Source: Hyphomicrobiales bacterium (GTDB lineage: Bacteria > Pseudomonadota > Alphaproteobacteria > Rhizobiales > Aestuariivirgaceae). From it: DNA of 40,000 nucleotides. The position numbers and the translations under genes were made by a program. The stretch lies in assembly GCA_038231475.1 (NCBI GenBank), contig JBBRLH010000011.1, positions 42,634 through 82,633 of the forward strand, written 5' to 3'. Shown piece by piece: positions 3,113 through 40,000 of the stretch (the stretch's first letter is position 1; every line of letters begins with the position of its first letter). The notes beneath the pieces were generated by a model. The model ran no database searches and was not told where the DNA came from. It saw nothing but the letters and a program-made list of their open reading frames with translations.

Positions 3113-3114
3113 TC

Positions 3115-3417
3115 CTAGCGGATGGGGTTATGCACGGTCACAAGTTTTGTGCCGTCAGGGAATGTCGCCTCGACTTGGATGTCGTGGATCATCTCGGGAA
3201 TGCCCTCCATGACCTGGCCGCGTGTCACGACATGGGCGGCGGCCTCCATCAAATGAGCCACGCTCTTTCCATCACGCGCGCCTTCGACAACAAAGTCGCT
3301 GATCAGGGCAATGGCCTCGGGATGGTTGAGCTTGACGCCGCGCCCCAAGCGCTTGCGGGCCACTTCGGCCGCCATGGCAATCAGCAATTTATCCTTTTCA
3401 CGCGGGGTGAGTTGCAT
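3115..3417 (-). CDS. ureA: urease subunit gamma
   Basis: 100 aa, [39 protein letters not shown]: canonical UreA. Confidence 0.95.
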
Positions 3418-3426
3418 GAATTTTCC

Positions 3427-4215: not shown

Positions 4216-4331
4216 GAACTGACGTTAGGGTGAAGTTCCGGACTTGGCCAGAGGCATACTGTCTGCGTGCTTGATTTTGCAGCGTTTCGGGTTCAAAGGA
4301 GGCTCACTTTTTGAGAGATTCACAGGACAGC

Positions 4332-4553
4332 ATGGCCAAAGAAGAACTATTGGAATTTGAAGGCACCGTGGCAGAACTTCTGCCCAACGCGACGTTTCGC
4401 GTTAAACTCGACCACAACGCCCATGAGATTATCGCCCACACGTCTGGCAAGATGCGCAAGAACCGCATTCGAGTTCTGGCCGGAGACCGCGTGATGGTGG
4501 AAATGACGCCCTATGATCTGACCAAGGGCCGCATCAATTACCGGTTCAAATAG
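4332..4553 (+). CDS. infA: translation initiation factor IF-1
   Basis: [26 protein letters not shown]...[16 protein letters not shown]. Trimmed to ATG 4332, which gives the canonical ~72-aa IF-1; the track start at 4311 is TTG. Confidence 0.95.
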
Positions 4554-5191
4554 TGACTGAACTCAGGGCCAAACTGGTTCTGGCCAGCGCCTCGCCCCGG
4601 CGCTTGGCGCTGCTCGACAAGGTGGGCCTGCCGCCTGATTTGCTCAATCCTGCAGATGTTGATGAAACGCCCTTAAAGCGCGAGTCGCCACGGCATCTGG
4701 CGATGCGATTGGCCGGAGCAAAAGCCGAAAAGGCCAAGCTCGCTCCGCTGGTGAAGGCACTTGGGGCTGGCGCGTTCATTCTTGCCGCTGATACAGTGGT
4801 GGGCCTGGGCCGCCGCGTTCTCCCCAAGGCTGAAGACCTGCAAACCGCCAAGGATTGCCTCACTTTGCTTTCGGGTCGTTCGCATTGGGTCTATTCTGCG
4901 GTTTGTTTGATTGCGCCTGATGGCACCAAGACCACGCGCTGCTCTGAAACCAAGGTTCGCTTCAAGCGTTTTTCTCGCGAAGACATCGAGACTTATTTGA
5001 AAAGTGACGAGTGGCGCGGCAAGGCCGGGGGCTATGCCATTCAGGGCCGGGCGGAAGCTTTTGTGCGCCATTTGTCTGGAAGTTATTCAGGCGTGGTGGG
5101 ATTGCCCCTCCAAGAAACCGTGCAGCTGTTGCAGGGTGCCAAGTTCCCCGTCTATCATAATTGGATGACGCAGAACTCCAGCGAGATCTGA
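4553..5191 (+). CDS. maf: Maf-like nucleoside triphosphate pyrophosphatase / septum formation protein
   Basis: 212 aa with LVLASASPRRLALLDKVGL and a C-terminal GKAGGYAIQG motif. GTG start overlaps the infA stop. Confidence 0.9.
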   Translation: MTELRAKLVLASASPRRLALLDKVGLPPDLLNPADVDETPLKRESPRHLAMRLAGAKAEKAKLAPLVKALGAGAFILAADTVVGLGRRVLPKAEDLQTAKDCLTLLSGRSHWVYSAVCLIAPDGTKTTRCSETKVRFKRFSREDIETYLKSDEWRGKAGGYAIQGRAEAFVRHLSGSYSGVVGLPLQETVQLLQGAKFPVYHNWMTQNSSEI

Positions 5192-7358: not shown

Positions 7359-7381
7359 GATTTGGCGTTTGAAACTTGAAC

Positions 7382-7413
7382 CCCCGGCTCACAAGGCCGG
7401 GGGTTTTCTTTTG
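7382..7413 (+). terminator. rho-independent terminator after the MFS gene
   Basis: Stem CCCCCGGC (7382-7389), 7-nt loop, GCCGGGGG (7397-7404), followed by TTTTCTTTT. Confidence 0.75.
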
Positions 7414-7443
7414 GAAAGTGCGGGGACGGTGATCTATTTTTAT

Positions 7444-7640
7444 TCAATCCTCTCCCCTTGAGGGAGAGGGGGGACCATTGCGGAACGCAATGGTGGGAGA
7501 GGGGTGTGTTCGCAACGGATAAGGTTGCAGGTTTGGATCAAGCGGTTTCATGCGTTGAACCAACCCCTCATCCGGCGCGTACCGCGCCACCTTCTCCCGC
7601 AAGGGGAGAAGGTTGGTCAGGGGGTGAGAGGGAGAAGGCG
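7444..7640. repeat. intergenic palindromic repeat element (copy A), two GGGAGA/TCTCCC hairpins
   Basis: Hairpins CCTCTCCC-cttga-GGGAGAGG (7449-7469) and CCTTCTCCC-gcaag-GGGAGAAGG (7590-7612). The segment CAACCCCTCATCCGGCGCGTACCGCGCCACCTTCTCCCGCAAGGGGAGAAGG is homologous to 22538-22588. Confidence 0.6.
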
Positions 7641-7660
7641 GAAGCGAGAAAGTCGAAAAA

Positions 7661-8179
7661 TTAGGCCGCTGCTGCGTGACGGGGTACCTTGTTTCCCGAA
7701 GCCACAATGCGGCCCTCGGCTTGAGTCAATGCGCCTTCAACCAGTTCGAGGCCCAGAAAGCGCTCGCGCTCCACTGGACCCGGAAGCTGAAGCTTCAAGG
7801 TGTGGCCGGGCTCAAAGCCGAAGCGCTTGTAGTAGGGATGATCGCCCACAAGAATGATGGCGCGATGGCCAGCGTCAAGGGCAGCGGCAATGGCTGTCGC
7901 CATCAGTGCGCTGCCGATCCCCTCGCAGGTGCGTTCGGCTGAAACGGCCAGAGGCCCCAGCAGCAAGGCTTCACCCACTGATCCAGCCGTGATGCTCCAC
8001 AGGCGGATCGTGCCGATGAGTTGGCAGTTTCCATCAACAGCCGAAAACGCAAAGGCGGGCAAGCGACCGCTGCGCAGTTTTTCCGAGGTCTTGCGCAGGC
8101 GCTTTGGACCAAAGGCGTTATTCAAAAGGGCCTCGCGGGCCGCAACATCAACAGGCAATTCAGCACGAATGGTGACCAT
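7661..8179 (-). CDS. GNAT family N-acetyltransferase
   Basis: 172 aa from ATG 8179, which has a GGGAGG RBS. Has an acetyl-CoA pocket-like CEGIGSALM and a C-terminal YYKRFGF. The longer track start at 8299 would overlap the decarboxylase. Confidence 0.8.
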   Translation of the reverse strand: MVTIRAELPVDVAAREALLNNAFGPKRLRKTSEKLRSGRLPAFAFSAVDGNCQLIGTIRLWSITAGSVGEALLLGPLAVSAERTCEGIGSALMATAIAAALDAGHRAIILVGDHPYYKRFGFEPGHTLKLQLPGPVERERFLGLELVEGALTQAEGRIVASGNKVPRHAAAA

Positions 8180-8216
8180 GACAGCCTCCCAAAAAAGCCA
8201 AAAGAAAAAGGGTGAC

Positions 8217-9353
8217 TTAGATGACGTAAGCTTTGAGCGGCGGGAAGCCGTTGAACGCCACCGACGCATAGGTCGTCGTGTAGGCGCCGCAGGATTCAAT
8301 CAACACCTCATCGCCGACCGACAGCGTGATCGGCAGGTCGTAAGGCGTCTTCTCATAGAGCACGTCAGCGGAATCGCAGGTTGGACCCGCGATCACGCAA
8401 GGTGTCTTTTCGTCTGCATCATGGGCGGTGACGATCGGATAGCGGATCGCTTCGTCCATGGTTTCGGCCAAGCCGCCGAACTTGCCGATGTCGAGATAGA
8501 CCCATCGCAAATTATCATTGGCGTGCTTCTTCGAAATCAAAACGACTTCCGACTTGATGACGCCCGCGTTGCCGACCATGCCACGGCCGGGCTCAATGAT
8601 AGTTTCAGGAATGGCATTGCCGAAATGCTTGGCCAGGCCATCGTGGATGGCATTGGCATAGGCATTGGTGCCGGGAACGGCTTTGAGATATTTGGTCGGA
8701 AAGCCGCCGCCGAGATTGACCATCTGCAAGGTGATGCCAACCTGCGCGCATTCATCAAAGATCGCCTTGGCCTGGGCCAAAGCCGTATCCCAGGCGCCAA
8801 GACGCGTCTGCTGGGAGCCGACATGGAAGGAAATGCCATAGGCACCAAGGCCAAGCTTATGAGCATGGACCAGAACATCTTTGGCCATGGCAGGCTCGCA
8901 GCCGAACTTGCGCGACAGCGGCCATTCAGCACCAGCGCCATCGGTGAGGATGCGGCAGAACACGCGGGCTCCCGGAGCAGCGCGGGCCACTTTTTCAACT
9001 TCTTCAACTGAGTCCACGGCAAAGAGCGAGACGCCGTAGGCATGGGCCTTGGCGATGTCGCGTTCCTTCTTGATGGTGTTGCCATAGGAGATGCGGTCAG
9101 GCGAAGCACCAGCGGCCAGCGCGAGTTCGATTTCAACCACCGAGGCGGTGTCGAAGTTCGAGCCTAGCCGTGCGAGCAGCGAGAGGATCTCAGGGGCTGG
9201 ATTGGCTTTCACCGCATAGAAAATGCGCGTGCCGGGCATGGCATGATCAAAAGCGCGGTAGTTGTCCTCAACGACGTTAAGGTCAACCACGAGGCATGGG
9301 CCTTCGGGCTTTTCATTTCGGAGGAAATCGATGATTCGTTGTGTCGCGGCCAT
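8217..9353 (-). CDS. PLP-dependent ornithine/lysine decarboxylase (alanine-racemase fold, group IV)
   Basis: 378 aa from ATG 9353 (MAATQRIIDFLRNEKPEGPCLVVDL). YAVKANP carries the PLP-lysine motif. GGGFP and CGPTCDSAD-like (AGPTCDSADVL) motifs are present. Confidence 0.9.
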   Translation of the reverse strand: MAATQRIIDFLRNEKPEGPCLVVDLNVVEDNYRAFDHAMPGTRIFYAVKANPAPEILSLLARLGSNFDTASVVEIELALAAGASPDRISYGNTIKKERDIAKAHAYGVSLFAVDSVEEVEKVARAAPGARVFCRILTDGAGAEWPLSRKFGCEPAMAKDVLVHAHKLGLGAYGISFHVGSQQTRLGAWDTALAQAKAIFDECAQVGITLQMVNLGGGFPTKYLKAVPGTNAYANAIHDGLAKHFGNAIPETIIEPGRGMVGNAGVIKSEVVLISKKHANDNLRWVYLDIGKFGGLAETMDEAIRYPIVTAHDADEKTPCVIAGPTCDSADVLYEKTPYDLPITLSVGDEVLIESCGAYTTTYASVAFNGFPPLKAYVI

Positions 9354-9707
9354 AGTGCAAACTCCCATTTCAAAATCAAATGACAGCCGTGCGACGTGCG
9401 GTCCACGCGATGGAAACGTGGATAGCCGCGTCAGCTTACTGACTGTTCGCCTTGGTTTGATCGGGGATCCCAATCGCGCTTAGGGCAAGAAAGTGGTGCC
9501 TCTCAGTGTCACTGACCTTTGGAGGGCCAGCAGAGACCAAAAAACCTTCACCGTCGTTGCTTTGGGGAGACCTTGCGGCACGTGCGACTTTGGGCAAGGC
9601 CGCATATGATGGATTCTTGTGTCATTTTCAAGAATTTTCTCGGGCGCGGCCGAAGTTTTTTGATAACAATTCCTTAATGGGTCCAACGCTGCCGAAAGGT
9701 TGGTTTG
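9354..9707 (-). promoter_or_regulatory. long structured 5' leader / promoter region of the decarboxylase gene (candidate speF-type leader)
   Basis: 354-bp noncoding gap upstream of an alphaproteobacterial ornithine decarboxylase. Minus-strand hairpins include CCACGtttccatcgCGTGG and GTCAGtaagCTGAC. A possible TTGAAA-17-CATATG promoter is present. Assignment to the speF leader family comes from context only. Confidence 0.35.
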
Positions 9708-17165: not shown

Positions 17166-18298
17166 TGTCTCTGTTGTTTTCTCCGTTTCAAATGCGTGAT
17201 GTCACGTTGCGCAACCGGGTCATCGTTGCGCCGATGTGCCAGTATTCGGCAAAGCATGGCGTGGCCAATGACTGGCATTTTGTCCATCTCGGCCGCTTTG
17301 CCCTGGGTGGCTTTGGCCTGGTAATGGTCGAGGCCACAGGCGTTTCGCCTGAGGGGCGGATTTCCTATGCCGATATGGGCTTGTGGAATGATGAGCAGGA
17401 AAAAGCCCTGTCGCGCATTGCGGGCTTTCTCAAATCGCAAGGCGCCACACCCGCCATCCAGATTGCCCATGCCGGTCGCAAGGCTTCAACTTCGGTGGCG
17501 TGGATCAACAGCGCCACATTGACGGACGCCGAAAAAGACAAACTCGGGTTTGAGCACTGGAAGCCCGTTGCCCCTTCCGCCCTCGCCCATTCTGCAGCAC
17601 CTGATTTTCAAGTGCCCACGACGCTCGACAAAGCAGGCATCCAGAAAGTCGTTGCCGATTTTGCAACCTCCTTCAAGCGCGCCGACCGCGCCGGATTCGA
17701 AGTCGCTGAAATCCATGCCGCGCATGGTTATTTGCTGAACCAATTCCTCTCCAGTTTTTCCAACACCCGCACTGATGAATATGGCGGCAGCCTGCAGAAT
17801 CGGATGCGCCTTGTCCTCGAAGTGGCGGAAGCGGCGCGGGCCGCTTGGCCCAAATCCAAGCCGCTCTGGGCGCGTGTCTCCGTAGTTGATGGCAAGGATG
17901 GCTGGACCGTCGAAGACAGCTTGGCCCTCGTGCCGGAACTGAAAGCGCGCGGCGTTGATGTCATCCATTGCACCACAGGTGGCTTCGACGGCACGTCGGT
18001 GAAGCCTGGCCCGCATTACCAAGTGCCAATGGCCGCGGCCCTGCGCAAGTCTGGCCTTCCCACCGTGGCCGTGGGCCTCATTCAAGACCCTCACGCTGCT
18101 GAGGCTGTTTTGCAGAAGAGCGAAGCTGATCTCATCGCCCTGGCCCGCGGCGCCTTGGAAGACCCGAACTGGGCAGTCCATGCGCATCATGTGCTGGATG
18201 AAGGTGACGAGGCTTACAAGCTCTGGCCGAAACAGGCGGCGGCAAGACTGCGCGATAAGGACCGTACGCTGGCGATCAGGGGATTTGCGAAGGCATAA
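17165..18298 (+). CDS. NADH:flavin oxidoreductase, Old Yellow Enzyme family (YqjM/NamA-like)
   Basis: MSLLFSPFQMRDVTLRNRVIVAPMCQYS, HAAHGYLLNQFLS. ATG 17165 overlaps the upstream stop (TAATG). Confidence 0.9.
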   Translation: MSLLFSPFQMRDVTLRNRVIVAPMCQYSAKHGVANDWHFVHLGRFALGGFGLVMVEATGVSPEGRISYADMGLWNDEQEKALSRIAGFLKSQGATPAIQIAHAGRKASTSVAWINSATLTDAEKDKLGFEHWKPVAPSALAHSAAPDFQVPTTLDKAGIQKVVADFATSFKRADRAGFEVAEIHAAHGYLLNQFLSSFSNTRTDEYGGSLQNRMRLVLEVAEAARAAWPKSKPLWARVSVVDGKDGWTVEDSLALVPELKARGVDVIHCTTGGFDGTSVKPGPHYQVPMAAALRKSGLPTVAVGLIQDPHAAEAVLQKSEADLIALARGALEDPNWAVHAHHVLDEGDEAYKLWPKQAAARLRDKDRTLAIRGFAKA

Positions 18299-19257: not shown

Positions 19258-20562
19258 TTACAAAATAAACTTGCTTAGATCCGTGTTCTTGGCCAATTCG
19301 CCGACATGCTGGTTCACATAGGCTGCGTCGATGTTCACCGTCTCGCCAGTCCGGTCGGTGGCGGTGAAGCTTACATCATCAAGAACGCGCTCCATGATAG
19401 TTTGCAAGCGGCGCGCGCCGATGTTTTCAACGGATGCGTTGATCTCGGCGGCGAGCTTGGCGATGGCGACCACGCCATCATCGGTGAATTCAAGCGCAAC
19501 ACCTTCGGTCTCAAGCAGCGCGCGATATTGCTTGATGAGGCTGGTCTCGGGCTCGGTCAAAATGCGGCGGAATTCTTCCTGTCCCAGCGCTTTCAATTCC
19601 ACGCGAATGGGAAGGCGGCCCTGAAGCTCCGGCAGCAAGTCTGAAGGCTTCGCCACATGAAATGCGCCCGACGCGATAAAGAGAATATGATCGGTCTTCA
19701 CCGGGCCATGCTTGGTTGAAACTGTCGTGCCTTCAATCAGTGGAAGCAAATCACGCTGCACACCTTCGCGGCTGACATCGGCACCACCGCGGCCTTCGCG
19801 CGATGCGATCTTGTCGATTTCATCGAGAAATACAATGCCATTGTTTTCAACTATTTCAATGGCTTCTGCGATGATCTTCTCCTGATCTAGGAGCTTTTCG
19901 CTCTCTTCATTCAGAAGAATTTTCTGGGCCTGCTCAACACTCACCTTGCGCGGCTTGGTGCGATTACCAAAGGCCTTGCCCATCATGTCGGAGAGGTTGA
20001 TGACGGAGGCTGAACCTCCCGGCATTCCCGGAATGTCAAAGGCGGGTAAGCCGCCTGTATCCGCAACCTGAATTTCAATTTCCTTGGTTGAAAGTTCGCC
20101 GGCGCGCAATTTTTTACGGAACACGTCTTGCGTTGACTCCGACGCGTTTGCACCGACCAAAGCTTCAACCACGCGGACTTCCGCATTGAGTTCAGCTTGC
20201 GCTTCCACTTCCTTGCGGCGTTGCGACTTCACCATGCCGATGCCCGCTTCCAAAAGGTCACGCACGATCTGGTCAACGTCGCGACCAACGTATCCCACTT
20301 CAGTAAATTTCGTCGCTTCAACTTTCAGGAATGGCGCATTGGCGAGTTTGGCAAGACGTCGCGCGATTTCGGTTTTGCCCACACCCGTGGGGCCTATCAT
20401 CAAGATATTTTTCGGAACCACGTCTTCGCGCATCTGGCCTTTGAGTTGTTGCCTGCGCCAGCGGTTGCGCAAAGCAATGGCCACGGCGCGCTTGGCGTCA
20501 TGCTGGCCAATGATGAAACGATCGAGTTCAGAAACGATTTCGCGGGGAGAGAAGTTGGTCAT
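19258..20562 (-). CDS. hslU: ATP-dependent protease ATPase subunit HslU
   Basis: 434 aa with [21 protein letters not shown] and Walker [16 protein letters not shown]. Confidence 0.98.
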
Positions 20563-30241: not shown

Positions 30242-30417
30242 CTCGAAAATCCCCTTCAGGGCGACCCCGAAACGGTCCAACCCCCATAATTACAGTGATT
30301 GGCAGGTTACATAGAATTTAAACCGCCCGATTCAAAGGGTTTTTGCAAAGCCACAATGGCGGGATTGAGGCAGATGGCGTTGATAGGACTTTACTATTTT
30401 AAATAGGAAAATAACCC

Positions 30418-30446
30418 TTGACACCGTGCGGGCGAGCGGCTATAGG
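30418..30446 (+). promoter_or_regulatory. sigma70-like promoter motif with no obvious plus-strand gene
   Basis: TTGACA (30418-30423), a 17-nt spacer, then TATAGG (30441-30446). It sits at the junction between the conserved backbone and the AT-rich island. Sequence motif only. Confidence 0.3.
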
Positions 30447-30561
30447 GGTATAGTGATATCTCGTAGAGTTCCGATTTATCAAGTTTGTTGTCATTGGGAT
30501 TTTGATTGAGTGCATGCTTATGCATGAAAGATTTCTATCAATGATCAATGGTGTTTTCGCG

Positions 30562-31674
30562 TCAATTTGATCTGGATAGTTCAATCATTTTGTTGCTCAA
30601 AAATGGTCGGTAAAAAGTTACCGCAGCGCTATATGGCTTCAATCTATTCACCGAGCTTTTCAAATAGCACGCACTATATTTTGCATTGTAGGTAGCCAGG
30701 TTGCAGGACTGATTTATTTGACACGCATTTTGACAGTCGCCTTGGGAAATGCCTCTGGTAGGCATATTGGGAAGATCATCTCCTGGCGCATCAAATCCCA
30801 CAACACTCAAAAGTCTTTGACTAATGTCTGTTGTTGGAACGTCGGTTCCTATAATTTCGGTTTCTGATACTGGGTTTTTATCTTGAGCTTCTGCGATGGA
30901 GGTTTGAATATCAGTTTGGGGCGCTGCTCCAGATGTAAGTGGCACTTCAACAATTTTTTCATCTGAATTACCGGTCTGAACAGGTGGCGGCGTGAACGGA
31001 GCAACACTCACTTGATACGATTTACCGTCCAGCCATGGGCATTTATTGGCTAAATTCTCTATGTCACTACTAGACAAACCTATATCTGAAACAAAATTTG
31101 GATCAAAATCAGGCGTGGTTTGTCCCGATAGAACTGAACTCCGATTGCCCAGAATAATTTGCGCTGAAAGTTTTCCTTTTGCACCTTGGAAATAGCACCA
31201 AGCGCTTTGCCATTGTCCCTTTGCCTGATCTTCCTGTGTTGCAAAAGCATGGCCAGCGGTTACGTCCCAAGACTTTCCACCAGCAAACACGCTTGTATTC
31301 TTAAATATTGTAAAATTAGTTGTGACGTAATCAGACTTGGTATTTTCGGCTTTGGTTGGTGTCGTATCCAACGTCGTTTTGGAATTCGTAACTGGAACAG
31401 GTGCCGGCGGCTCTATAGAAGGGGAATAATCCTGTTGGGATATCATCGGGTGATCTGTCGTATTAATTAAACGAATGGCAAATGCCGCTGCGACAATAAC
31501 CAATGCAATTGCGGCGGCTCTTCCCAACCAGTTCGACCGGCTTATGGCACTAGTCATCACAGGATAAGACGGGGCGCCGATAGCAGGTGCCAAAGTCAAA
31601 AATTTAGCATCGTACCTTCGAATTATTTGTGCCAGCGCTTCTTCAAGTGCTTGGGTGTTGTGCCTTGTCTCCAC
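30562..31674 (-). CDS. membrane-anchored protein with C-terminal PAN/Apple-like Cys domain
   Basis: 370 aa. Single TM (AAAIALVIVAAAFAIRL). C-terminal GDCQNACQINQSCNLATYNAKYSACYLKS matches the C..C....C......CxLK spacing of PAN/Apple (PAN_4-like). AT-rich. Overlaps the upstream gene by 32 nt; an alternative start is at 31557. Confidence 0.6.
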   Translation of the reverse strand: METRHNTQALEEALAQIIRRYDAKFLTLAPAIGAPSYPVMTSAISRSNWLGRAAAIALVIVAAAFAIRLINTTDHPMISQQDYSPSIEPPAPVPVTNSKTTLDTTPTKAENTKSDYVTTNFTIFKNTSVFAGGKSWDVTAGHAFATQEDQAKGQWQSAWCYFQGAKGKLSAQIILGNRSSVLSGQTTPDFDPNFVSDIGLSSSDIENLANKCPWLDGKSYQVSVAPFTPPPVQTGNSDEKIVEVPLTSGAAPQTDIQTSIAEAQDKNPVSETEIIGTDVPTTDISQRLLSVVGFDAPGDDLPNMPTRGISQGDCQNACQINQSCNLATYNAKYSACYLKSSVNRLKPYSAAVTFYRPFLSNKMIELSRSN

Positions 31675-33298
31675 GCCTGCGACCCTTCAGTGATATTTTT
31701 ACCTGCTCAGCAATGTCACTCGGCAAAGCAGCATCCAAAGATTTAAAAAGTTCGTCCGGATTATCTGTAAGGAGAGGAATGTAAAGAATCTCCTTGATGA
31801 CCTTCTCCACCGGAACCTCTTTTTCCACAGTAAGGGTTCGAACTCTTTTCCACCTTCGACCTACGACATAGCTGCGAAAGAGCCTAGAAATCCCCCCTTG
31901 TTTTTGAACGGTTGAGGGCGACAAACCAATTTTCTGCAATCCCAATGCAACAATTGCACACATTGGGCCAGCCAAGGCAGCGAGTGCGGCGAGTGACCCA
32001 AACCAAATTAGACCAATTTTTGATGCCGATTCTATTTTCACATCCTCAGCATTTTGCCCAAATACCCATCCAGCCAGTCTTTGAACTTGATCTTTTCTTG
32101 CAAGGACTATTCGCTTGCTCTCCGTTTCTTCAATTTGCTTATCAAGAGCGAACAACTTGTCGTTATTCTCATTTATTGAGTTGGACCGAGAAGTTTCTAA
32201 ACTCTGAGCATCACCCATAAGCTGGCGAGCTTTGTCAATTTGGGTCGCCCATTTATTGTCGGAATCACGCAATTGAGCCACAAGTTCTTTGCGCCGTGCT
32301 TCCGCCTCCCCGCGTTGACTCGTATTACTGTTAGAAAGATTGGCGCGAATGGAATCAAGTTGATCCCGTTTTTGCGAAATTTCCAGATCAATTGCATCCA
32401 CTTTGGATTTGAAATCGGCGTAGATTGCGGGAACGGGGTTTTTGAGTGCAGCTAACTCCTGGGACCACTGAGCCTTTTGACTTGTGTCTGCACCTTTGAG
32501 CCTGTCTACATAGCTATCGCGTTGGCTGGTGAATAGTTTCGATTGCTCTTCCACCTTTTGATTTTGTTCACTGACGAGGGCCTGTCGTTTCTCGTCTAAA
32601 GCCTTTAAACTGTCGCGAAGCTGTGCTCCCTCAGGTGTAAGCACGACCCCGCCTTCCAAATCTTTTTCTACTTTGGATATTTTACTTTCAATAGATTGAT
32701 GATCCTGCTCAGCCAATTTTGAAAGCTTATCAATATTGTCTTGCGAGTCGGAAAGAGCACTGTGGCCCTGTAAGGTCGCGATCTCATTCGCAATCCTTGC
32801 CCGATCACGTTGCAGATCACCTTCACTTTTCTGAAGTTCTTTAAACCTCAACTCTCTTAGAGTTGTTGATCTTTCAAGACCCATGAATACGGTTTCGAAA
32901 GTAATGCCTGCAAGCAAAACTAAAAATATGGCTAGTATAGGTTTCCATCTCCATTTCACCGAAAATAACAACGTCGCAATTGGAATCTTTGTGAGTTCAG
33001 CCAACGCCACCATAAAGAATGGCGCGCTCGCAAGAATAAGATCGCTGCGATCTGCACTTTCGCTGTTTTCAAATGCTTGCAACCCTAAAACAATGCCGGT
33101 CGTAAGGCCTATCGAAGCCGCGATAATTTCGAGCGCCCACGCACAGCGATAGGTCCAGCGACCGTAAGAGGCCAATTTTGCATTAAAAGTATCAGATGGT
33201 CGGGTTTTTCCGCCGCTTAGCACTGAAGATTGTAAATCAGTGTTGCCGTCCGAATTATGACTTGCGGTAGATGTTGCTTGGTTATTGTTAAAGCCCAT
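31643..33298 (-). CDS. multi-pass membrane protein with ~300-aa central coiled coil (unknown function)
   Basis: Start set at ATG 33298 (GGGGAAG RBS); the track start is 33403. Three N-terminal TM segments, a long heptad-rich Q/E/K/D/S region, one further TM (IGLIWFGSLAALAALAGPMCAIVALGL) and a basic C-terminal tail. Confidence 0.6.
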   Translation of the reverse strand: MGFNNNQATSTASHNSDGNTDLQSSVLSGGKTRPSDTFNAKLASYGRWTYRCAWALEIIAASIGLTTGIVLGLQAFENSESADRSDLILASAPFFMVALAELTKIPIATLLFSVKWRWKPILAIFLVLLAGITFETVFMGLERSTTLRELRFKELQKSEGDLQRDRARIANEIATLQGHSALSDSQDNIDKLSKLAEQDHQSIESKISKVEKDLEGGVVLTPEGAQLRDSLKALDEKRQALVSEQNQKVEEQSKLFTSQRDSYVDRLKGADTSQKAQWSQELAALKNPVPAIYADFKSKVDAIDLEISQKRDQLDSIRANLSNSNTSQRGEAEARRKELVAQLRDSDNKWATQIDKARQLMGDAQSLETSRSNSINENNDKLFALDKQIEETESKRIVLARKDQVQRLAGWVFGQNAEDVKIESASKIGLIWFGSLAALAALAGPMCAIVALGLQKIGLSPSTVQKQGGISRLFRSYVVGRRWKRVRTLTVEKEVPVEKVIKEILYIPLLTDNPDELFKSLDAALPSDIAEQVKISLKGRRRGDKAQHPST

Positions 33299-33387
33299 TT
33301 TTCTTCCCCGAAACAATCTAACAGCTTTGTTACCATAGGCAATAGACTGTATAAAAACCGACGAGCAGGAAGCCTTAAGGGGATTTC

Positions 33388-33693
33388 GTGATAGTGATGA
33401 CATGGAAAATGTGGCGTTATACTTCCGTAACAGCCTTGATGCTGACGTGCACGGCCATAATTTTCGAAACCCCTCAAGCTTCGGCTTTCACACAAGCGGA
33501 AATTGCACAGCGAATTATCAACGATAGTTTATCTACCTATCCTGGCAATTGCCCCTGTCCCTATAACAGAGACCGAGCTGGCCATTCATGTGGAAAAAGG
33601 AGCGCTTATTCTAAACCAGGTGGATACTCGCCAATATGTTTTGCAAGCGATGTTACTGAGGAAATGATCCAAAATTGGATTCATAGTCATTGA
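33388..33693 (+). CDS. small secreted Cys-rich protein
   Basis: 101 aa. Signal peptide ending QASA. Mature part contains GNCPCPYNRDRAGHSCGKRSAYSKPGGYSPICF. Divergent from the coiled-coil gene. Confidence 0.5.
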   Translation: MIVMTWKMWRYTSVTALMLTCTAIIFETPQASAFTQAEIAQRIINDSLSTYPGNCPCPYNRDRAGHSCGKRSAYSKPGGYSPICFASDVTEEMIQNWIHSH

Positions 33694-33833
33694 AGTGGAA
33701 TCGCGAGAACATGAGTGAATAAATAGGACTCGACAGGTCAATGGATAACTTATATATATTCCTATATACGTTATTTAATCCTTCGGAGACTAATATGCGA
33801 AATCAAACTGGCTTAAGCATAAAATGGAGGAAA

Positions 33834-33944
33834 ATGGAGGTCAGTGCTAGCGGAGTTCCAGCGCTTTTAACCGTGGTGATAATATCTCTGTGTATCGTGG
33901 CAGGCTTAGCTATCACTCATGTATTTGGATGCGTGTTTATCTAA
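33834..33944 (+). CDS. possible 36-aa hydrophobic peptide
   Basis: ATG 33834 is preceded by GGAGGA. MEVSASGVPALLTVVIISLCIVAGLAITHVFGCVFI is a single TM. The RBS-ATG lies in a perfect 10-bp tandem duplication, AAAATGGAGG x2 (33821-33840). Weak call. Confidence 0.3.
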   Translation: MEVSASGVPALLTVVIISLCIVAGLAITHVFGCVFI

Positions 33945-34109
33945 TCTGATTTTTTTTGATTTTAAGTTTGAACACCACGAAATTACAATGCATTTGGAAA
34001 TTTTGGAAATTTCAAACCCTCTCGATTTTCGACTTTTCTGTGAATTGAGTGCAAGAAAATTTGGCGATGAATTATTGTTGTAAAATGACAAGCGGATTTA
34101 GTTCTATAT

Positions 34110-35162
34110 TTAGTCGTGCGCAATCACTGCACATATAGCCGTGACAATTTTCCTAGCCAATTGTGGGTTCAAACGACAAAAACCCTCATCGGTCACCACA
34201 AAATCAGTTACTGAAAATGTTTCTTTGAAGATCATTTTCAGTATTTGACCATCAACAATCGGCCGAAATGGCTCCATGCGGTCAAGTACGAAAGCATCGC
34301 GGTATTTTCGCTTTCGATGAAATATTCCAATTGTTGGATCGTAGCCTTCAGCAATAACTTGAAGTTTGATTTGTGAATGAAGCACCGCGTAGGCGTAATT
34401 CAACATCGCATTAAAAGGGTGCCGTGCGTTGACGTTGCCTTGGGCAATTGCCGACCGCCTGCCGCCGATATATTTCCAGTCTACCGGGATTAAATCGCGC
34501 TGCTTTAATTTCCAATGAATTGGAATTCTTTGCCAAGCCTCAAAATATTTTGCGGCACTTGCACCCTCCAAACCAAGTAATTCATTGGTCGAAAGTAATT
34601 TCGGACTTTTTAATTTGGTTATGGAGTTTCCGAGAAAATCAATTGCGATTTGCGCCTCATATTTTTCCGAAAACATTTTAAGCGTCGAAATTGAATTCTT
34701 GAATTTTAAAATGAGTAATTTCCGAATTTCAATTTGTGAATTACCCATTTCCAATTGTTTTTGGACCAGCTTTGCATCTGCTGAATAATTCATATTGGCA
34801 ACACATATTACATTTCCCTGCCAATCAATTTGAATAAGGGGTATATTTCTCTCACCAAGCCATTGCAAAACATCGAGAGAAATTGACCCTGACGCGTCGA
34901 AAATGATTATTCGGTTGGGTAAATGTGGATCCCCGCGAAAAAATCGAAATTCCTCGCGTTCTTGGGGATAATGAGTAAATCCATTTCGGATAAATAACGT
35001 CCCGCGATCAATTTGGAACCTGGCCCCATGACCGCAAATAATCAGTGGTCTTTTATCCCGCCTTTTAATTCGGCCTCTATGAGATAGCGATTCTTCGGGT
35101 TTTCCGAGCCAATATTCGGAACGTTCTGCCCAATCTGCAGATGAAACAGACCCATATTCCAT
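34110..35162 (-). CDS. cas1: Cas1 family endonuclease/integrase, stand-alone (putative casposase)
   Basis: 350 aa. LLGLEGASAAKYF (Glu), RRSAIAQGNVNARHPFNAMLNYAYAVL, GYDPTIGIFHRKRKYRDAFVLDRMEPFRPIVD (His, Asp/Glu) form the canonical Cas1 alpha-helical catalytic core. The N-terminal PLIICGHGARFQIDRGTLFIRNG matches the Cas1 beta-domain start. Confidence 0.85.
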   Translation of the reverse strand: MEYGSVSSADWAERSEYWLGKPEESLSHRGRIKRRDKRPLIICGHGARFQIDRGTLFIRNGFTHYPQEREEFRFFRGDPHLPNRIIIFDASGSISLDVLQWLGERNIPLIQIDWQGNVICVANMNYSADAKLVQKQLEMGNSQIEIRKLLILKFKNSISTLKMFSEKYEAQIAIDFLGNSITKLKSPKLLSTNELLGLEGASAAKYFEAWQRIPIHWKLKQRDLIPVDWKYIGGRRSAIAQGNVNARHPFNAMLNYAYAVLHSQIKLQVIAEGYDPTIGIFHRKRKYRDAFVLDRMEPFRPIVDGQILKMIFKETFSVTDFVVTDEGFCRLNPQLARKIVTAICAVIAHD

Positions 35163-35239
35163 TGCGAAATATCCCAGTCAAATTGAGTGTTAAATCTATC
35201 ACAAATGTCAGATTTAGTCCTTAGAATTTAACGGGATAT

Positions 35240-36223
35240 CTAGGTTATTTGACGCGTTTTTCCAGCGCCAACATTTTTTTGTGGCCATTCCTTGCGCTGA
35301 ATAGCGCACACTAAAGCAACGAAATTAGCCACCTTAAAATTTGGCTGCAGCAGCCCTTTGTAAGCTTCAACAAAAAGACCAGGATCAAACCCAGAAGGTA
35401 ATTGGCATTTTGGAATTGCCAGCAATTCTTTAAATGACCGAAGAGCAGCAACCATTTTCCAGAATTCAGTTCTTGCGGTTTTAAAGTGAATTGACTCAGC
35501 GGATTCGAGCGCAAACTGTCCGGAGTTTGTTGTTTCGTCGGCGGGCGCAAAGATGCCTTTGAACAAATTAATCGCAGGGTTTTGTGAAAATTCTCTTGGC
35601 TCTGGAATACCTAAGGCATTTGCCAAGGACTCCGCAAATGACGTCCTAGTTTCGCCTGTCCTCAAAGTGGCAAGCATGTCGAGCCTTTCACGGCCTGAAT
35701 AGGCGAAACCTTCGGGAACCAATCTGCTGTCAACATTTGGAGTCCCATTTTCGAATGCTTTGACCGTTCTGGCACTTGGTTCCGAATTGGCAAGATCAAC
35801 GTTTGAACGGGTATTCATCACTTGAGACGAACTCAACCGCTTCAGAGTCCGCAAGCACGCCCGTCTTAGATCTTTGATATTCACATGCGCGCCGAAGAGC
35901 CAAAGCAGAATTTGCAATTCATCAAAGTATTTTACGCCCTGACTTTTGAAGCGACAAATTCGGCATGCCCGTCTGTAGGCCAAGGCGTCCCAATGGGATC
36001 GAAAACCCTTTCCCCGACCCAAACTAACTTTGATTGGCCCTGGAATGACTCGCTCTTCACACCAATCTCTCACCATACGGTCAGTGACTGTGATCCCGCA
36101 ATTGATCTGAGCCCATTGGATGAGCCGATTGAGAAACTCTTCGTAAGAAAACACCGCAGGTTTCTTCGTTCCGTCCGCGCGATCGCTTTCCAAGTTTAGT
36201 ACTCCCACCATCCATTGCAACAC
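35240..36223 (-). CDS. hypothetical protein (possible N-terminal HTH)
   Basis: 327-aa ORF, the only long ORF in this stretch. FSYEEFLNRLIQWAQINCGITVTDRMVRDWCEERVIPGP could be a helix-turn-helix. No recognised family. Confidence 0.5.
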   Translation of the reverse strand: MLQWMVGVLNLESDRADGTKKPAVFSYEEFLNRLIQWAQINCGITVTDRMVRDWCEERVIPGPIKVSLGRGKGFRSHWDALAYRRACRICRFKSQGVKYFDELQILLWLFGAHVNIKDLRRACLRTLKRLSSSQVMNTRSNVDLANSEPSARTVKAFENGTPNVDSRLVPEGFAYSGRERLDMLATLRTGETRTSFAESLANALGIPEPREFSQNPAINLFKGIFAPADETTNSGQFALESAESIHFKTARTEFWKMVAALRSFKELLAIPKCQLPSGFDPGLFVEAYKGLLQPNFKVANFVALVCAIQRKEWPQKNVGAGKTRQIT

Positions 36224-36268
36224 GCAGGAAAGGTTTGGCCCATTGGACTCTTAATAAGGAGAACCAAT

Positions 36269-36844
36269 GTGACCAAATCAAAGCGCAACTACAAGGACGA
36301 ATATGCCCGCCGCCTAGCGAGGGCGTTCGGTAAGAATCTAAGCCGTGCCGAGGCCCGTGGCCACGGCAAACAAGCCCTGAAGCCGAAGTCGGGGAAAGCC
36401 TTCAGTTCCGACCAGCGGTTTCTGGAAAAGGGCGTCAAGCTCATCAAGTCGGGTTCGAGCCTTACGGGGGCGGCCAAAGAGCTCCATGTGGCACCCGAGC
36501 GCCTGCGCAATTACCTGGAAGCGTCTGGCGTTGCTAAAAAGGTCGGGGCTCGATGGCGGATTGGCCCGGACGACCGCGCCAGGCAAATGCTGGTCTTCTC
36601 AGAACATCGAGCCCTCAAGGTGAAGGTTGAGCCTGAAGCTGCTTCATTGATCGGCAGTTACATGAATGATGTCGGTCTGTTTTTGAACAGCAATAATCCC
36701 TCATTTCTGAAGGCCTGGAAAGATGAACGCTTCGTCGATTTCAAAGGCCGCAAGCACCCCTTCGAAACTGATCCCAATAGTTTGTACCGGCTCAACCAGG
36801 CTGGACGGAACAGCTTCGATGAAATCTACCGCATCATAACATAA
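36269..36844 (+). CDS. hypothetical HTH-like DNA-binding protein
   Basis: GTG 36269 is preceded by AGGAGA; the track start at 36215 would overlap the divergent gene. Basic N-terminus with an LSRAEARGHG motif. SLTGAAKELHVAPERLRNYL is HTH-like. Confidence 0.5.
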   Translation: MTKSKRNYKDEYARRLARAFGKNLSRAEARGHGKQALKPKSGKAFSSDQRFLEKGVKLIKSGSSLTGAAKELHVAPERLRNYLEASGVAKKVGARWRIGPDDRARQMLVFSEHRALKVKVEPEAASLIGSYMNDVGLFLNSNNPSFLKAWKDERFVDFKGRKHPFETDPNSLYRLNQAGRNSFDEIYRIIT

Positions 36845-36856
36845 GGAAACTTGACT

Positions 36857-37219
36857 ATGGACACTACTAAACTTGCAAGAGAAGCCCGCGAACGTGCGGC
36901 CAAGCGAAGACTAGGATCCGATAGCCCGTGCTGCGCCACATGCGGCTGCAGTGATTGGAAATGCCTTGAGGCACACCATATCGCAGGGCGTGCCTATGAT
37001 CCAACTACCGACATTGAGTGTCGTAACTGCCATCGCATCTTGAGCGATTGGCAAAAGGATCACCCCAAACAAACAATCAATCCCCCGAGCTTCGAAGAAG
37101 GGCTCGCTCATTTCCTGCTGGGCATGGCGGACCTGTTTGAGCTGCTAGTCGGAAAACTCCGCGAGTTCGCTGACAAACTACTTGAAAAACTGCAACCCAC
37201 TTTGGAGCCACAATCATGA
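36857..37219 (+). CDS. HNH endonuclease
   Basis: CCATCGCSDWKCLEAHHIAGRAYDPTTDIECRNCHRIL is the CxxC...HH...CxxCH HNH zinc-finger nuclease pattern. Its stop overlaps the polB start (ATGA). Confidence 0.75.
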   Translation: MDTTKLAREARERAAKRRLGSDSPCCATCGCSDWKCLEAHHIAGRAYDPTTDIECRNCHRILSDWQKDHPKQTINPPSFEEGLAHFLLGMADLFELLVGKLREFADKLLEKLQPTLEPQS

Positions 37220-39864
37220 CGAACTCAAATCTTGACCTGCCTCACCCTGACTACTTGTCAATCGCGATCAGAACCTATGCTGATCATCGCCAACAAAAGC
37301 CGTTCAGCGCACCACCTTACATTTCGTCCAAATATTCTTTGATTTTTGACTGTGAGACCACCACCGACGAAACCCAGTCCTTGCGGTTTGGAGCTTTCCA
37401 GATTCGGGAGAATGGGGAACTTATTGAGCAGGGTGTATTTTATGACGACCAAACTTTGGATGGGAACGAGTTGGAATTGCTCAAAACCTATGCAGCAACA
37501 TATGGCGTTGCCCATCTCCCCGTAGATGTGTTCGTCGAGAACTACCTCTACAAATTTGGATATGACCTGGGTGCTGCCATTGTTGGATTTAATCTGCCCT
37601 TTGATCTCTCCAGATTAGCCAAAGACTGGGGCATTGCACGAAGGTCAATGAAAGGAGGTTTCACCTTCCCACTTTCGGACGACAAGCGGCGACCCAATAT
37701 TGCCATCAAGCACCTCAGCAGCCGGATGTCCCTGATGAGGTTTGTTGGCCCTTTCGTGCAGAGCACAGGGCGCGGCATGCGAAGGCGTAAAGCTCTTGTC
37801 CCGTTTGAAAGAGGCACATTCATTGACGTGCGCACCCTTGCTGCAGCGTTGCTCAGTAAGTCATTTAGCTTGGGCAAGCTTTCTGAACATCTGCAGGTCG
37901 AGCATCAAAAGCTTGAGACCGATGAGCATGGAGGTCCATTGACTGAGGATTACATTCGCTATGCCGTGCAGGATGTCCAAACAACCTGGGAGTGTTTTGT
38001 TGCACTTCGCAAGAAATATGACGAACTGAAACTCTCGACTCCCATCCACAAGATCATGAGTGAGGCCAGTCTAGGGAAAGCCTATCTTTCCCAAATGGGC
38101 ATTAAGCCCTGGCGGCAATGCCAGCCTGATTTTCCGCCTGAACTTATCGGCAAGATCTTCAGTACATACTATGGTGGACGATCCGAAGTGCATATCCGCC
38201 GGAAAATCCAGCGTGTCATGTATTGCGATTTTCTCTCCATGTACCCGACGGTTTGCACCAAAATGGGTTTGTGGAAGTTTGTCATTGCCGAAGGCATGAC
38301 CTGGCGGGATGGCACTGACGAGATTCAGCAGCTCATCGATGGGATAAATGTTGATGATTTCCGAAATCCCGAGACCTGGAAGAGATTGACGGCCATTGTT
38401 CGCCTCAAACCTGAGGCCAATCTCTTTCCGGTTCGTGCCGAATATGTTGAAGGTGCTGGGACATCCATCGGGCTGAATCATCTCTCATCGGAGAGGCCAC
38501 TGTATTTCACGCTGGCCGATTGCGTTGCCTCAAAGCTGTTGACAGGGAAAACGCCGCAAATTGAAGAAGCCATCATTTTCGAGGCTGGCCCCCCTCAAGT
38601 TGGCTTGCAACCTGTCGAGATTGGAGGCCAAGCCGATTGCCTGGTTGACCCTTACAATGATGATTTCTATAAAAAGCTCATAGAGCTGCGCCAGACCATC
38701 AAGGCCAGGATGAAAAGGGCTTCGTCTGTCGAAGCCTGGCAACTTGATGCAGCACAATTGGCCCTTAAGATTGCTGCCAATGCCACAAGCTATGGCATCT
38801 TTGTTGAAATCAATGTGCGTGATGAACTTAAGAATAAAGAGGTCACCTGCTACGGGCCTGAAGGTTCTTTCACTGCCAAGACCCGCAAAACCGAGCAGCC
38901 GGGCCGCTACTTTCACCCACTCCTTGCTACACTCATCACCGGGGCAGCCAGGTTGCTTCTGGCTTTGGTAGAATACAAGGTCAAGGATGCTGGCTTAGAC
39001 TGGGCCCTTTGTGACACAGACAGCATGGCCATTGCCCGACCTGAGGGCATGGAAGAAGCAGAGTTTATTCGAAAGGCCAAAACCATTTGCACATGGTTCG
39101 ATGATTTGAACCCGTATCAAGGTGGCGGTCCCTTGCTAAAGATAGAAGACGACAATTATTCGCTGGATGATCCAAAGTCTCTAGCCGAATTATATTGCCT
39201 TGCAGTTTCATCCAAGCGCTATGTGTTGTTCAATACTGTTGATGGCAAGCCAGTCATTCGCAAGGTATCTGCTCATGGTTTGGGACACCTCCTCGAACCA
39301 TATAATGAGAAGAATCCTGCGAAGAACCTTGCCAAACCCAAGGTTGATCTCAAGGAGGCCAGGCTTTGGCATCATGACCTGTGGTATCAAATCATCATCG
39401 CGGAACTTGAGGGACACGGTGCGCAAATTGACTTGACCTGGCATGCCGCATTGAAAAAGCCAGCAATGAGCCAATACAGAGCATCAAGCCCTGATCTGCT
39501 CGCCTGGTTTAAGTCATGCAATGCGGGCAAGAAATACCGAGACGCGGTCAAACCCTTCAACTTCCTTCTGACCCAGATCGCAGGCAGTGATGTCTTGAAG
39601 AGCAGCGTTAAAGCGGTGGCTCCATATGACAAGGATCATGATCGCGCCATTCAGAAGGCCTTTGATCGAATAACGGGGATGAAAATCAACCGCAGGGATC
39701 TGCAGAGCTTTGCCCAGGCACTCATGCAATATCATATACATCCAGAGGCAAAGTTTCATGGTGGGGATTTTGTGGACCAAGGCCCGACCTCCTGCCGCCA
39801 CGTGCATGCCATTGGCATACAGCACATTGGAAAAGAGGCGGACCGGCTGGAGGAGAGATGGTAA
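37216..39864 (+). CDS. polB: family B DNA polymerase with 3'-5' exonuclease domain
   Basis: 882 aa. ExoI FDCETTT (D45/E47), ExoII FNLPFD (aa 125-130), ExoIII YAVQD (249-253), YxGG YYGG (318-321), motif A DFLSMYP (338-344), motif B KIAANATSYG (518-527), motif C CDTDS (599-603), KxY SKRY (666-669). All appear in canonical order. Confidence 0.9.
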   Translation: MTNSNLDLPHPDYLSIAIRTYADHRQQKPFSAPPYISSKYSLIFDCETTTDETQSLRFGAFQIRENGELIEQGVFYDDQTLDGNELELLKTYAATYGVAHLPVDVFVENYLYKFGYDLGAAIVGFNLPFDLSRLAKDWGIARRSMKGGFTFPLSDDKRRPNIAIKHLSSRMSLMRFVGPFVQSTGRGMRRRKALVPFERGTFIDVRTLAAALLSKSFSLGKLSEHLQVEHQKLETDEHGGPLTEDYIRYAVQDVQTTWECFVALRKKYDELKLSTPIHKIMSEASLGKAYLSQMGIKPWRQCQPDFPPELIGKIFSTYYGGRSEVHIRRKIQRVMYCDFLSMYPTVCTKMGLWKFVIAEGMTWRDGTDEIQQLIDGINVDDFRNPETWKRLTAIVRLKPEANLFPVRAEYVEGAGTSIGLNHLSSERPLYFTLADCVASKLLTGKTPQIEEAIIFEAGPPQVGLQPVEIGGQADCLVDPYNDDFYKKLIELRQTIKARMKRASSVEAWQLDAAQLALKIAANATSYGIFVEINVRDELKNKEVTCYGPEGSFTAKTRKTEQPGRYFHPLLATLITGAARLLLALVEYKVKDAGLDWALCDTDSMAIARPEGMEEAEFIRKAKTICTWFDDLNPYQGGGPLLKIEDDNYSLDDPKSLAELYCLAVSSKRYVLFNTVDGKPVIRKVSAHGLGHLLEPYNEKNPAKNLAKPKVDLKEARLWHHDLWYQIIIAELEGHGAQIDLTWHAALKKPAMSQYRASSPDLLAWFKSCNAGKKYRDAVKPFNFLLTQIAGSDVLKSSVKAVAPYDKDHDRAIQKAFDRITGMKINRRDLQSFAQALMQYHIHPEAKFHGGDFVDQGPTSCRHVHAIGIQHIGKEADRLEERW

Positions 39865-39898
39865 TCCCCCCATTTTTAATGGGACTTGATTGTAGAAC

Positions 39899-40000
39899 TC
39901 ACGCGGCCAATTGTTGTTTCAGTTTCTGAGCGGGTGTTATGCCGCCAAGCCCCATGTTGGGACGGTCGTTGTTGTAAGTCCATAGCCAGTCTGTGGCGTA
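39899..40000 (-). CDS. DDE (rve) transposase, C-terminal 33 codons; IS3-family-like; 5' part lies beyond the window
   Basis: Not in the ORF track. Manual minus-strand translation gives YATDWLWTYNNDRPNMGLGGITPAQKLKQQLAA*, the W..YN..RP...LGG.TP end of rve-domain transposases. A candidate IS terminus TG... lies at 39887-39891. Confidence 0.8.
   Translation of the reverse strand, partial: YATDWLWTYNNDRPNMGLGGITPAQKLKQQLAA

Follow-up and report, generated by a model that had tools for sequence, protein, structure and literature searches.

Here we present an analysis of a 40,000-nucleotide (nt) stretch of DNA from a Hyphomicrobiales bacterium (GenBank assembly GCA_038231475.1, contig JBBRLH010000011.1, positions 42,634 to 82,633 of the forward strand), referred to below as the window, and of the casposon that occupies its right-hand part. 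From 30,445 onward the window consists of the left and middle portions of a family-3 casposon of the HenMar-C1-like, alphaproteobacterial kind, as follows from a Cas1 protein 41% identical to that of HenMar-C1, from the core module and the termini, and from the fit of the published family 3 features. The element is inserted approximately 165 bp upstream of murA, between this gene and the displaced downstream sequence. Its cas1 arm and its polymerase arm have different histories within the casposon family. The features on which this account depends are listed here, with protein lengths in amino acids (aa).

30430-30444, no strand: predicted left copy of the target site duplication (TSD), GGGCGAGCGGCTATA, 14-15 bp, placed by analogy with the related locus L003.
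30445-30477, plus strand: left terminal inverted repeat, GGGGTATAGTGATATCTCGTAGAGTTCCGATTT, which matches the family terminus and has no other copy in the window.
34110-35162, minus strand: cas1, for a casposase (Cas1-family integrase) of 350 aa with no added N- or C-terminal domain.
35240-36223, minus strand: orf327, a gene that varies among relatives and separates cas1 from the polymerase arm; the main change-point in guanine-plus-cytosine (GC) content lies within it.
36215-36844, plus strand: orf209, for a conserved core protein with homologs in related loci.
36851-37219, plus strand: gene for an HNH-type nuclease of 122 aa, whose start is perhaps an internal ATG.
37216-39864, plus strand: polB, for a family B DNA polymerase of 882 aa (Pfam DNA_pol_B_2, E=6.6e-08; DNA_pol_B, E=1e-05).
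39863-40000, minus strand: end of an insertion sequence (IS), the 3' end of a DDE/rve transposase gene, recognized by an rve_3 match.

Judged by its sequence, Cas1 is the intact-looking casposase of this element. The product of the 34110-35162 open reading frame (ORF) matches Pfam Cas_Cas1 (E=7.8e-40) and TIGR00287 (E=4.9e-33), and all of the subtype-specific Cas1 models score far under their own cut-offs. A preliminary description of this DNA had called the protein a stand-alone Cas1 with intact active-site residues that looks functional rather than decayed. E199 (in LLGLEG), H282 (in GIFH), and D294 and E297 (in VLDRMEPFR) can indeed be read at the positions it named; in alignments they fall on the catalytic Glu/His/Asp/Glu residues of the casposase structure 6OPM and of the Cas1 proteins of CRISPR (clusters of regularly interspaced short palindromic repeats) systems, and in an alignment of 40 homologs E199, D294 and E297 are invariant while H282 is at least 90% conserved. 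Against its nearest relative, L003, cas1 has a ratio of nonsynonymous to synonymous substitution rates (dN/dS) of 0.14, which indicates purifying selection, so with these residues kept the protein is at least functional-looking. The closest PDB sequence is 6OPM itself, the Methanosarcina casposase (E=4e-30), followed by CRISPR Cas1 proteins from E=4e-14 onward. An AlphaFold (AF2) model (predicted local distance difference test, pLDDT, 80; predicted template modelling score, pTM, 0.71) consists of an N-terminal beta domain and a helical catalytic domain, and its top Foldseek matches are three 6opm chains (E=4.7e-19), with CRISPR Cas1s behind them. The model confirms the Cas1 fold, and because it contains nothing past residue 348, this Cas1 lacks a C-terminal DNA-binding domain. 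Among published casposon proteins, the Cas1 of HenMar-C1 is the one already mentioned (E=4e-75), and that of StrAlb-C1 is 25% identical.

A Cas1 gene on its own might instead be the remnant of a decayed CRISPR-Cas locus, an orphaned adaptation gene, and the generic Cas1 models do match it. However, neither a CRISPR array nor tandem repeats were found in the 40-kb window, nor cas2 or any other cas gene in a PADLOC scan of the eight island ORFs, which bears out the term stand-alone; in addition, the subtype models fail, the best match in both sequence and fold is a casposase, and throughout the family the gene is linked to PolB and to terminal repeats. The casposase match, the linkage to PolB and termini, and the lack of cas2 and of an array refute the orphan gene, and we give it practically no credence.

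The polymerase arm, divergent from cas1, is made up of orf209, the HNH gene and polB. The orf209 product has no Pfam match and is matched by no HTH (helix-turn-helix) model; its homologs always lie directly upstream of HNH-PolB, and, as judged from PMC4046053 only, it is a candidate counterpart of the "conserved HTH protein" in family 2 and 3 casposons. The HNH protein shows a CxxC...HH...N...CxxCH motif in its translation and a weak HNH_2 match (E=0.13), and its homolog in locus L106 clears the Pfam HNH threshold (E=9.3e-05, 22.9 bits). PolB has no PDB sequence relative at E<0.01, and its exonuclease motifs (ExoI FDCETT at 44, ExoII NLPFD at 126, ExoIII YAVQD at 249) and polymerase motifs (A DFLSMYP at 338, B KIAANATSYG at 518, C DTD at 600) are intact.

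The end of polB is another matter, as an insertion sequence interrupts the gene at codon 882 and the C-terminal ~82 aa, the HTH region, have been lost. A gap-free alignment pairs the window PolB with residues 1-882 of P0122, a protein of 964 aa that goes on into an HTH-like tail, and many PolB homologs carry HTH_3 domains. Three observations identify the interruption: nucleotide homology to L003 and to a second relative, L004, ends at about 39,862, with the window polB stop codon at the junction; the minus-strand translation beyond it, YATDWLWTYNNDRPNMGLGGITPAQKLKQQLAA followed by a stop, matches rve_3 (E=0.0013), as the C-terminus of an rve-type transposase; and a contig from an independent assembly breaks at the same place. 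This contig, L001 (Logan, SRR19962015; 6,407 nt), is 100% identical to window positions 33,483-39,889, and its right break falls 26 nt into the IS, as expected of a repeat. Its left break, at 33,483, lies inside the small cargo gene orf101, near 33,661 where similarity to L003 resumes, and could be a cargo variant in that sample. The IS at 39.87 kb carries the sole transposase in the island; among the element's own ORFs there is no Pfam match to an integrase, transposase or tyrosine recombinase.

The left terminus at 30445 coincides with the fall from host GC to island GC. A search for inverted repeats within 30-40 kb gave no credible terminal pair, and the terminus was recognized only by comparison with L003, an Aestuariivirga metagenome-assembled genome in which GGGGTATAGTGATAT occurs at 3507(+), 17740(-) and 17756(+), and in which the 15-mer GGTCTATCGGCTAGT stands immediately before 3507 and again, taking up the whole interval, between 17740 and 17756. 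These positions delimit a casposon of 14.2 kb that has terminal inverted repeats and a TSD of 15 bp, and a second casposon lies in tandem with it, the two parted only by the shared TSD GGTCTATCGGCTAGT (17709-17787, 3492-3521). The window terminus is identical to those of L003, whose ends carry the same 15-mer at 3507(+) and 17740(-). Since no second copy of the terminus is found up to position 40,000, the right end of the casposon lies beyond the window, where the inverted right terminus, ...ATATCACTATACCCC, and the second copy of GGGCGAGCGGCTATA would be expected, perhaps with a large HTH protein before them, such as L003 has. In the wider family, inverted pairs of the terminus GGGGTATAG... 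(short form GGGGTATAGTGATA), spaced 7-19 kb, recur in dozens of related loci, and TSDs of 14-16 bp were seen in 19 of the 19 loci that have both termini at two or fewer mismatches.

Upstream of the left terminus, at about 30400-30444, lies a conserved target flank. Some 45 nt to the left of the terminus are alike in the window (30400-30444) and in L003 (3462-3506), with the shared pattern taggaaaata..cttgacaccgt.cgg....cggcta.., including a TTGACA box 17 nt from a TATAGG at the junction. The host neighbors at these flanks differ, being murA in the window and a LysR gene in L003; flanks alike despite different host genes suggest that the casposon target is sequence-specific, the recognized segment lying beside the duplicated 15 bp. 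No tRNA gene, another possible target, is present in the window. Many relatives sit in short, terminator-like hairpins with GC stems flanked by A/T runs, the 14-15 bp duplication covering the hairpin (for example L093, at 9078-9098 and 19774-19795, and also L020, L034, L079, L010 and L049). The published "terminal inverted repeat" of HenMar-C1, CCCCCTCTCCCGGATCGGGAGGGGATAAGGG (direct repeat 1 bp), may in fact consist of a palindromic duplication of this kind with the true terminus, GGGGATAAGGG, after it.

How common this arrangement is became clear from a scan for Cas1 relatives that took one genome per species. At least 589 genomic loci were found, mostly in Alphaproteobacteria; other hosts among the matches listed were Nitrosomonas, Bordetella, Gammaproteobacteria, Actinomycetes, Thermomicrobiales, Myxococcota and Chthoniobacteraceae. 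A scan of JGI metagenomes with the window Cas1 gave a single close relative, on a short contig. For comparison we used 80 fetched loci together with L003 and L004. PolB is found in 69 of these, orf209 in 70 and HNH in 64, the arrangement being the same and most exceptions being contig ends, so that the core Cas1 / orf209 / HNH / PolB recurs in the same order and orientation in 69 of the 82 related loci, from many genera. The closest PolB relatives, at 79% and 75% identity, likewise lie on contigs with the same gene order and with Cas1 adjoining.

This recurrence bears on whether an unrelated Cas1 island and HNH-PolB island simply abut near 36.25 kb, as the divergent orientation of the genes and a GC-rich patch at 36.3 kb could suggest. 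Against a fusion of this sort stand the common gene order in the related loci, the single pair of inverted termini and single TSD that flank the module in relatives, and the identical 6.4-kb stretch across both arms, which an independent assembly recovered on a single contig. The recurrence of the core module and the paired termini with TSDs refute a fusion of unrelated islands at this locus, and its probability is negligible. The preliminary description had proposed different histories for the two arms in a recombinant or chimeric element; the arms are not unrelated parts, since together they form the conserved core of one family, although, as shown below, their histories do differ.

Base composition was what first drew attention to the two arms. 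The host DNA at 1-30,280 has a GC content of 55.4%. Within the element, cas1 stands at 41.3% (37.0% at third codon positions, GC3), orf327 at 47.4%, orf209 at 54.0% (GC3 63%), the HNH gene at 52.6% and polB at 50.0% (GC3 55.0%), values that agree with earlier estimates made by eye. The difference between cas1 and polB (chi-square p=2e-6) falls mostly at third codon positions, as GC at second positions (GC2) is 37% in cas1 vs 39% in polB; the spacers flanking cas1 are at 32-36%. Likelihood segmentation of the element, judged by the Bayesian information criterion, prefers two segments, with 42.9% GC to the left and 50.7% to the right of a change-point at about 35,495, inside orf327. A sharp step exactly between the divergent genes near 36.25 kb, as had been proposed, is therefore ruled out by a change-point at about 35.5 kb; the ~63% GC noticed at 36.3 kb does correspond to a real patch of 62% over 300 nt (36,295-36,594, in the 5' part of orf209), which a five-segment solution singles out, but the main step is ~750 nt further left. 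The lowest-GC block of the element in the segmentation, at 39.6%, is 33595-35494; it takes in orf67 and cas1 with AT-rich spacers, ends in the 3' part of orf327, and includes the stretch of highest similarity to L003. The arms differ in oligonucleotide usage as well: the composition-normalized tetranucleotide distance between the arms is 0.262, above the maximum of 0.224 for pairs of host chunks (0.195 +/- 0.016), and the distance to the host is 0.218 for the right arm and 0.253 for the left.

The same offset is found in relatives. Every member of the Cas1 subclade to which the window belongs has cas1 at 39-43% GC and polB at 48-50%, and L003 and L004 repeat the profile in detail (cas1 ~41-43%, orf209 54-57%, polB 48-50%). 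The offset is common to the window, L003, L004, L031, L106, L107 and L109, which rules out that it is unique to this locus; four of these, L031, L106, L107 and L109, have Cas1 proteins 57-61% identical to that of the window and PolB proteins only ~46-47% identical. It is not a general property of the family either, since over 69 loci the difference polB minus cas1 averages only +1.4 points (SD 3.2), and the window, at +8.7, lies in the upper tail. The GC step is real, and it is an inherited trait of the Cas1 subclade rather than a local scar, because all subclade relatives, including those with a different PolB lineage, have the same offset. It is thus no sign of arm fusion at this locus.

The step might be explained by a single history in which the whole element entered a 55% GC host and the polymerase arm drifted faster toward host composition, with no recombination. 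Casposon composition does follow the host: in 25 elements with delimited ends, GC tracks host GC with r=0.86 for the element, 0.87 for polB and 0.76 for cas1, the mean deficits relative to the host being 7.8, 5.4 and 6.9 points (SD 5.5 for cas1). In the window, polB lies 5.4 points under the host, exactly the family mean, and cas1 14.1 points under, and the right arm is the nearer to the host in tetranucleotide usage. To this extent the suggestion that the polB arm has ameliorated has some weak support. Yet the offset is the same with two PolB lineages and in different hosts, and differential amelioration leaves unexplained both the conflict of the Cas1 and PolB trees and the lower synonymous divergence of cas1 described next; we consider it an unlikely account of the whole.

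Gene trees were built by neighbor joining from Kimura distances for Cas1 and PolB of 63 elements, with 100 bootstraps, and they conflict. In the Cas1 tree the window, L003, L004, L106, L107 and L109 form a clade in 100 of 100 bootstraps, a grouping recovered in 0 of 100 in the PolB tree. There, the window, L003 and L004 form a 100% clade, and L106, L107 and L109 fall in a separate clade, at 99-100%, with L007, L013, L090 and L077. Pairwise identities say the same, as the window Cas1 is closer to those of L109, L106 and L107 (57-60%) than to that of L004 (50%), while the window PolB is 75% identical to that of L004 and far less to those of the other three (46-47%).

Synonymous divergence (dS) from L003 likewise differs along the element, at 0.53 for cas1, 1.09 for orf209, 1.79 for HNH and 1.98 for polB, an approximately four-fold range, with dN/dS of 0.06-0.14 in all four genes, each under purifying selection. 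Nucleotide identity to L003 is 87-95% over 34,180-34,930, ~50% in orf327 and ~76% in the polymerase arm, and the drop in similarity falls within ~200 nt of the GC change-point. Inside cas1, a 450-nt stretch at 34330-34780 matches L003 at 92-95% identity, against 50-80% elsewhere in the element, which suggests a recent gene-conversion tract within the gene. Discordance between the arms is found in other pairs too: between L106 and L109 dS is 0.19 for polB and 0.86 for cas1, with HNH unalignably divergent; L070 and L059 are 76% identical in PolB vs 46% in Cas1, and L090 and L087 are 66% identical in Cas1 vs 43% in PolB. The cas1 and polymerase arms have different histories, in agreement with the first half of what had been proposed, as the conflict at 99-100% bootstrap and dS of 0.53 vs 1.98 attest.

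Selection might perhaps keep the cas1 cassette AT-rich, whether through low expression by rare codons or through silencing by an AT-binding nucleoid protein, in which case the GC step would say nothing about history. A gene-specific constraint would fit cas1 staying at 39-43% GC across relatives down to 50% protein identity in hosts of 52-59% GC, the concentration of the difference at third positions, and the low GC of the spacers beside cas1. However, cas1 and polB differ little in GC among the other members of the family, which leaves no general constraint, and no regulator or binding site has been identified. Such a constraint would also be compatible with the evidence for recombination without replacing it, and taken as the full explanation it seems improbable.

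Taken together, these observations make it quite likely that the element is a family-3 casposon, damaged by an IS, with an inherited GC step and with arms re-paired by recombination between related casposons. Several points weigh against this. Nothing tested explains why cas1 remains at ~41% GC across 50%-identical proteins in hosts of 52-59% GC; its persistent AT-richness could come from circulation through a lower-GC reservoir or from selection for AT-richness. The trees are distance-based rather than maximum likelihood, and support is low at their deep nodes, at only 19-51% for the sister group of the window PolB clade. Differences in rate between the genes could inflate part of the identity discordance, and a dS near 2 is saturated, which makes the four-fold ratio approximate. 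The right terminus and second TSD copy are outside the window, so only the left and central part of the element is seen here.

In the mechanism that we propose, Cas1 would, by analogy with known casposases, attach the GGGGTATAG... termini through their 3' ends to a specific target, giving the 14-15 bp duplication, and the divergent orf209-HNH-PolB operon would provide for replication and for accessory functions on DNA, the parts of orf209 and HNH in this being putative. Homologous recombination between related casposons would repeatedly re-pair a cas1 arm with a polymerase arm, the junction of exchange lying in the variable slot between cas1 and orf209. An AT-rich cas1 lineage would in this way be carried on at least two polymerase backbones, the cassette keeping its 39-43% GC whichever polymerase arm it joined. 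In the lineage of the window, the cas1 cassette would coalesce with that of L003 more recently than the polymerase arm does, although the direction and timing of the exchange are only presumed.

A bolder reading, which we regard as rather doubtful, is that alphaproteobacterial family-3 casposons consist of separately exchangeable modules, an integrase cassette (cas1 with the adjoining terminus and the cargo slot) and a replication cassette (orf209-HNH-polB), and that an AT-rich casposase lineage spreads horizontally over polymerase backbones. The elements would also home to short terminator-like hairpins with GC stems, with the 14-15 bp duplication spanning the hairpin in a geometry like that of a CRISPR repeat.

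The remaining genes of the element are cargo, or lie next to cas1.

30562-31674, minus strand: cargo gene for a protein of 370 aa with a C-terminal PAN domain (Pfam PAN_4, E=3e-07; PAN_1, E=3.7e-07), GC 44.5%.
31643-33403, minus strand: ORF for a cargo protein of 586 aa, with no Pfam or PADLOC match and missing from related loci.
33388-33693, plus strand: orf101, a small cargo ORF with no family match and not in related loci.
33741-33944, plus strand: orf67, a small ORF adjoining the 3' end of cas1, conserved in L003.

The 370-aa PAN protein has no homolog in any related locus. The orf67 product shares 70% aa identity with L003 6534-6713, with nucleotide identity of 76% over 33661-33901. Weak homologs of orf327 occur in only 7 of 83 loci, other genes filling its slot in relatives. 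No match to orf327, orf209, orf101, orf67 or the 586-aa protein came from Pfam, NCBIfam or PADLOC. In relative L106, the cargo adjoining cas1 (6844-8180) is defence-like, with a ThsB-like TIR protein and a SLATT protein; cargo beside cas1 in relatives (L106 6844-8180; L107 937-3431; L108 2301-4766) also includes a pair of radical SAM enzymes and a DUF4238 protein. In L108, a 4-kb low-GC island at 1000-5000 holds a Cas1 56% identical to that of the window, the DUF4238 protein and one family terminus at 4954(-), and a methyltransferase of host GC lies at the position expected for the polymerase arm; L108 is apparently a half-casposon that keeps only the Cas1 arm. In the host part of the window, Rfam matches are 5_ureB_sRNA at 2363-2651 (+), 136 bits, most likely only ureB coding sequence, and a speF leader at 9391-9532 (-), 46.9 bits. 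This leader and the Aestuariivirga relatives of the element indicate a host among Hyphomicrobiales-like Alphaproteobacteria.

The closest known systems are the family 3 casposons of the HenMar-C1 type, described from Henriciella marina, Hyphomonas and Citromicrobium, which have bacterial hosts, intergenic insertion, an HNH protein accompanied by a small conserved protein, and a Cas1 of the HenMar type to which no other domain is fused (PMC4046053, PMC4779613). The window element fits this description, being intergenic in a bacterial host, with an unfused Cas1, a putative HNH protein and a conserved small protein; its relatives add a PolB with a C-terminal HTH, terminal inverted repeats and TSDs of ~14-15 bp. 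The terminus GGGGTAT... of the family is also shared with the published terminal inverted repeat of NitAL212-C1, GGGGTATGTTAAC... (PMC4046053 supplement). Unlike the HenMar-C1 casposons, the window element has a polB truncated by an IS, a cargo of PAN-domain and 586-aa proteins, and a Cas1 subclade that is unusually AT-rich relative to polB. In the descriptions of family 3 casposons that we searched there is no report of an exchange of cas1 and polB arms.

The casposase of Methanosarcina mazei (family 2/4), whose structure 6OPM is titled in the PDB "Casposase bound to integration product", shares the catalytic Glu/His/Asp/Glu and gives the best sequence and fold match; however, identity is only ~25-27%, Methanosarcina is an archaeal host, and the 431-aa 6OPM chain runs well past the aligned core (residues 19-309), whereas the window Cas1 stops 8 residues after it. 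Family 2 casposons have a C-terminal HTH fused to Cas1 (PMC4046053). Tandem elements sharing one TSD, as in L003, are known from Methanosarcina casposons (PMC4779613). With the Cas1 of CRISPR-Cas adaptation (types I-C, I-D, I-G and II) the window Cas1 shares fold and active site, but it lacks Cas2, an array and a leader, and its gene is tied instead to PolB and to the ends of a transposon. Pipolins, which encode piPolB and occur in Alphaproteobacteria among other hosts (PMC5695915, PMC11551731), are comparable as PolB-encoding integrative elements of Alphaproteobacteria with variable cargo, including defence genes (here ThsB_TIR and SLATT in L106). Pipolins combine piPolB with a tyrosine recombinase and direct att repeats, usually at a tRNA gene. 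The window element differs in that the scanned island ORFs include no tyrosine recombinase and the window no tRNA, in that the ends are terminal inverted repeats with a TSD rather than direct att repeats, and in that the polymerase is always paired with Cas1.

An odd stand-alone Cas1 is thereby resolved as part of an ordinary, partly damaged casposon, and its GC step is no evidence of a local fusion. Casposons of the HenMar type appear to be far commoner in Alphaproteobacteria than the handful known in 2014-2016 would suggest, with the 589 or more loci found here. Module exchange between the cas1 and polB arms is a modest but real addition at the level of the family. If it is true, trees of Cas1 or PolB alone could not be read as the history of whole casposons, and the exchange would bear on arguments about the origin of CRISPR adaptation. 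The hairpin target geometry, if true, would in turn be relevant to the path that took Cas1 from transposition to the integration of spacers.

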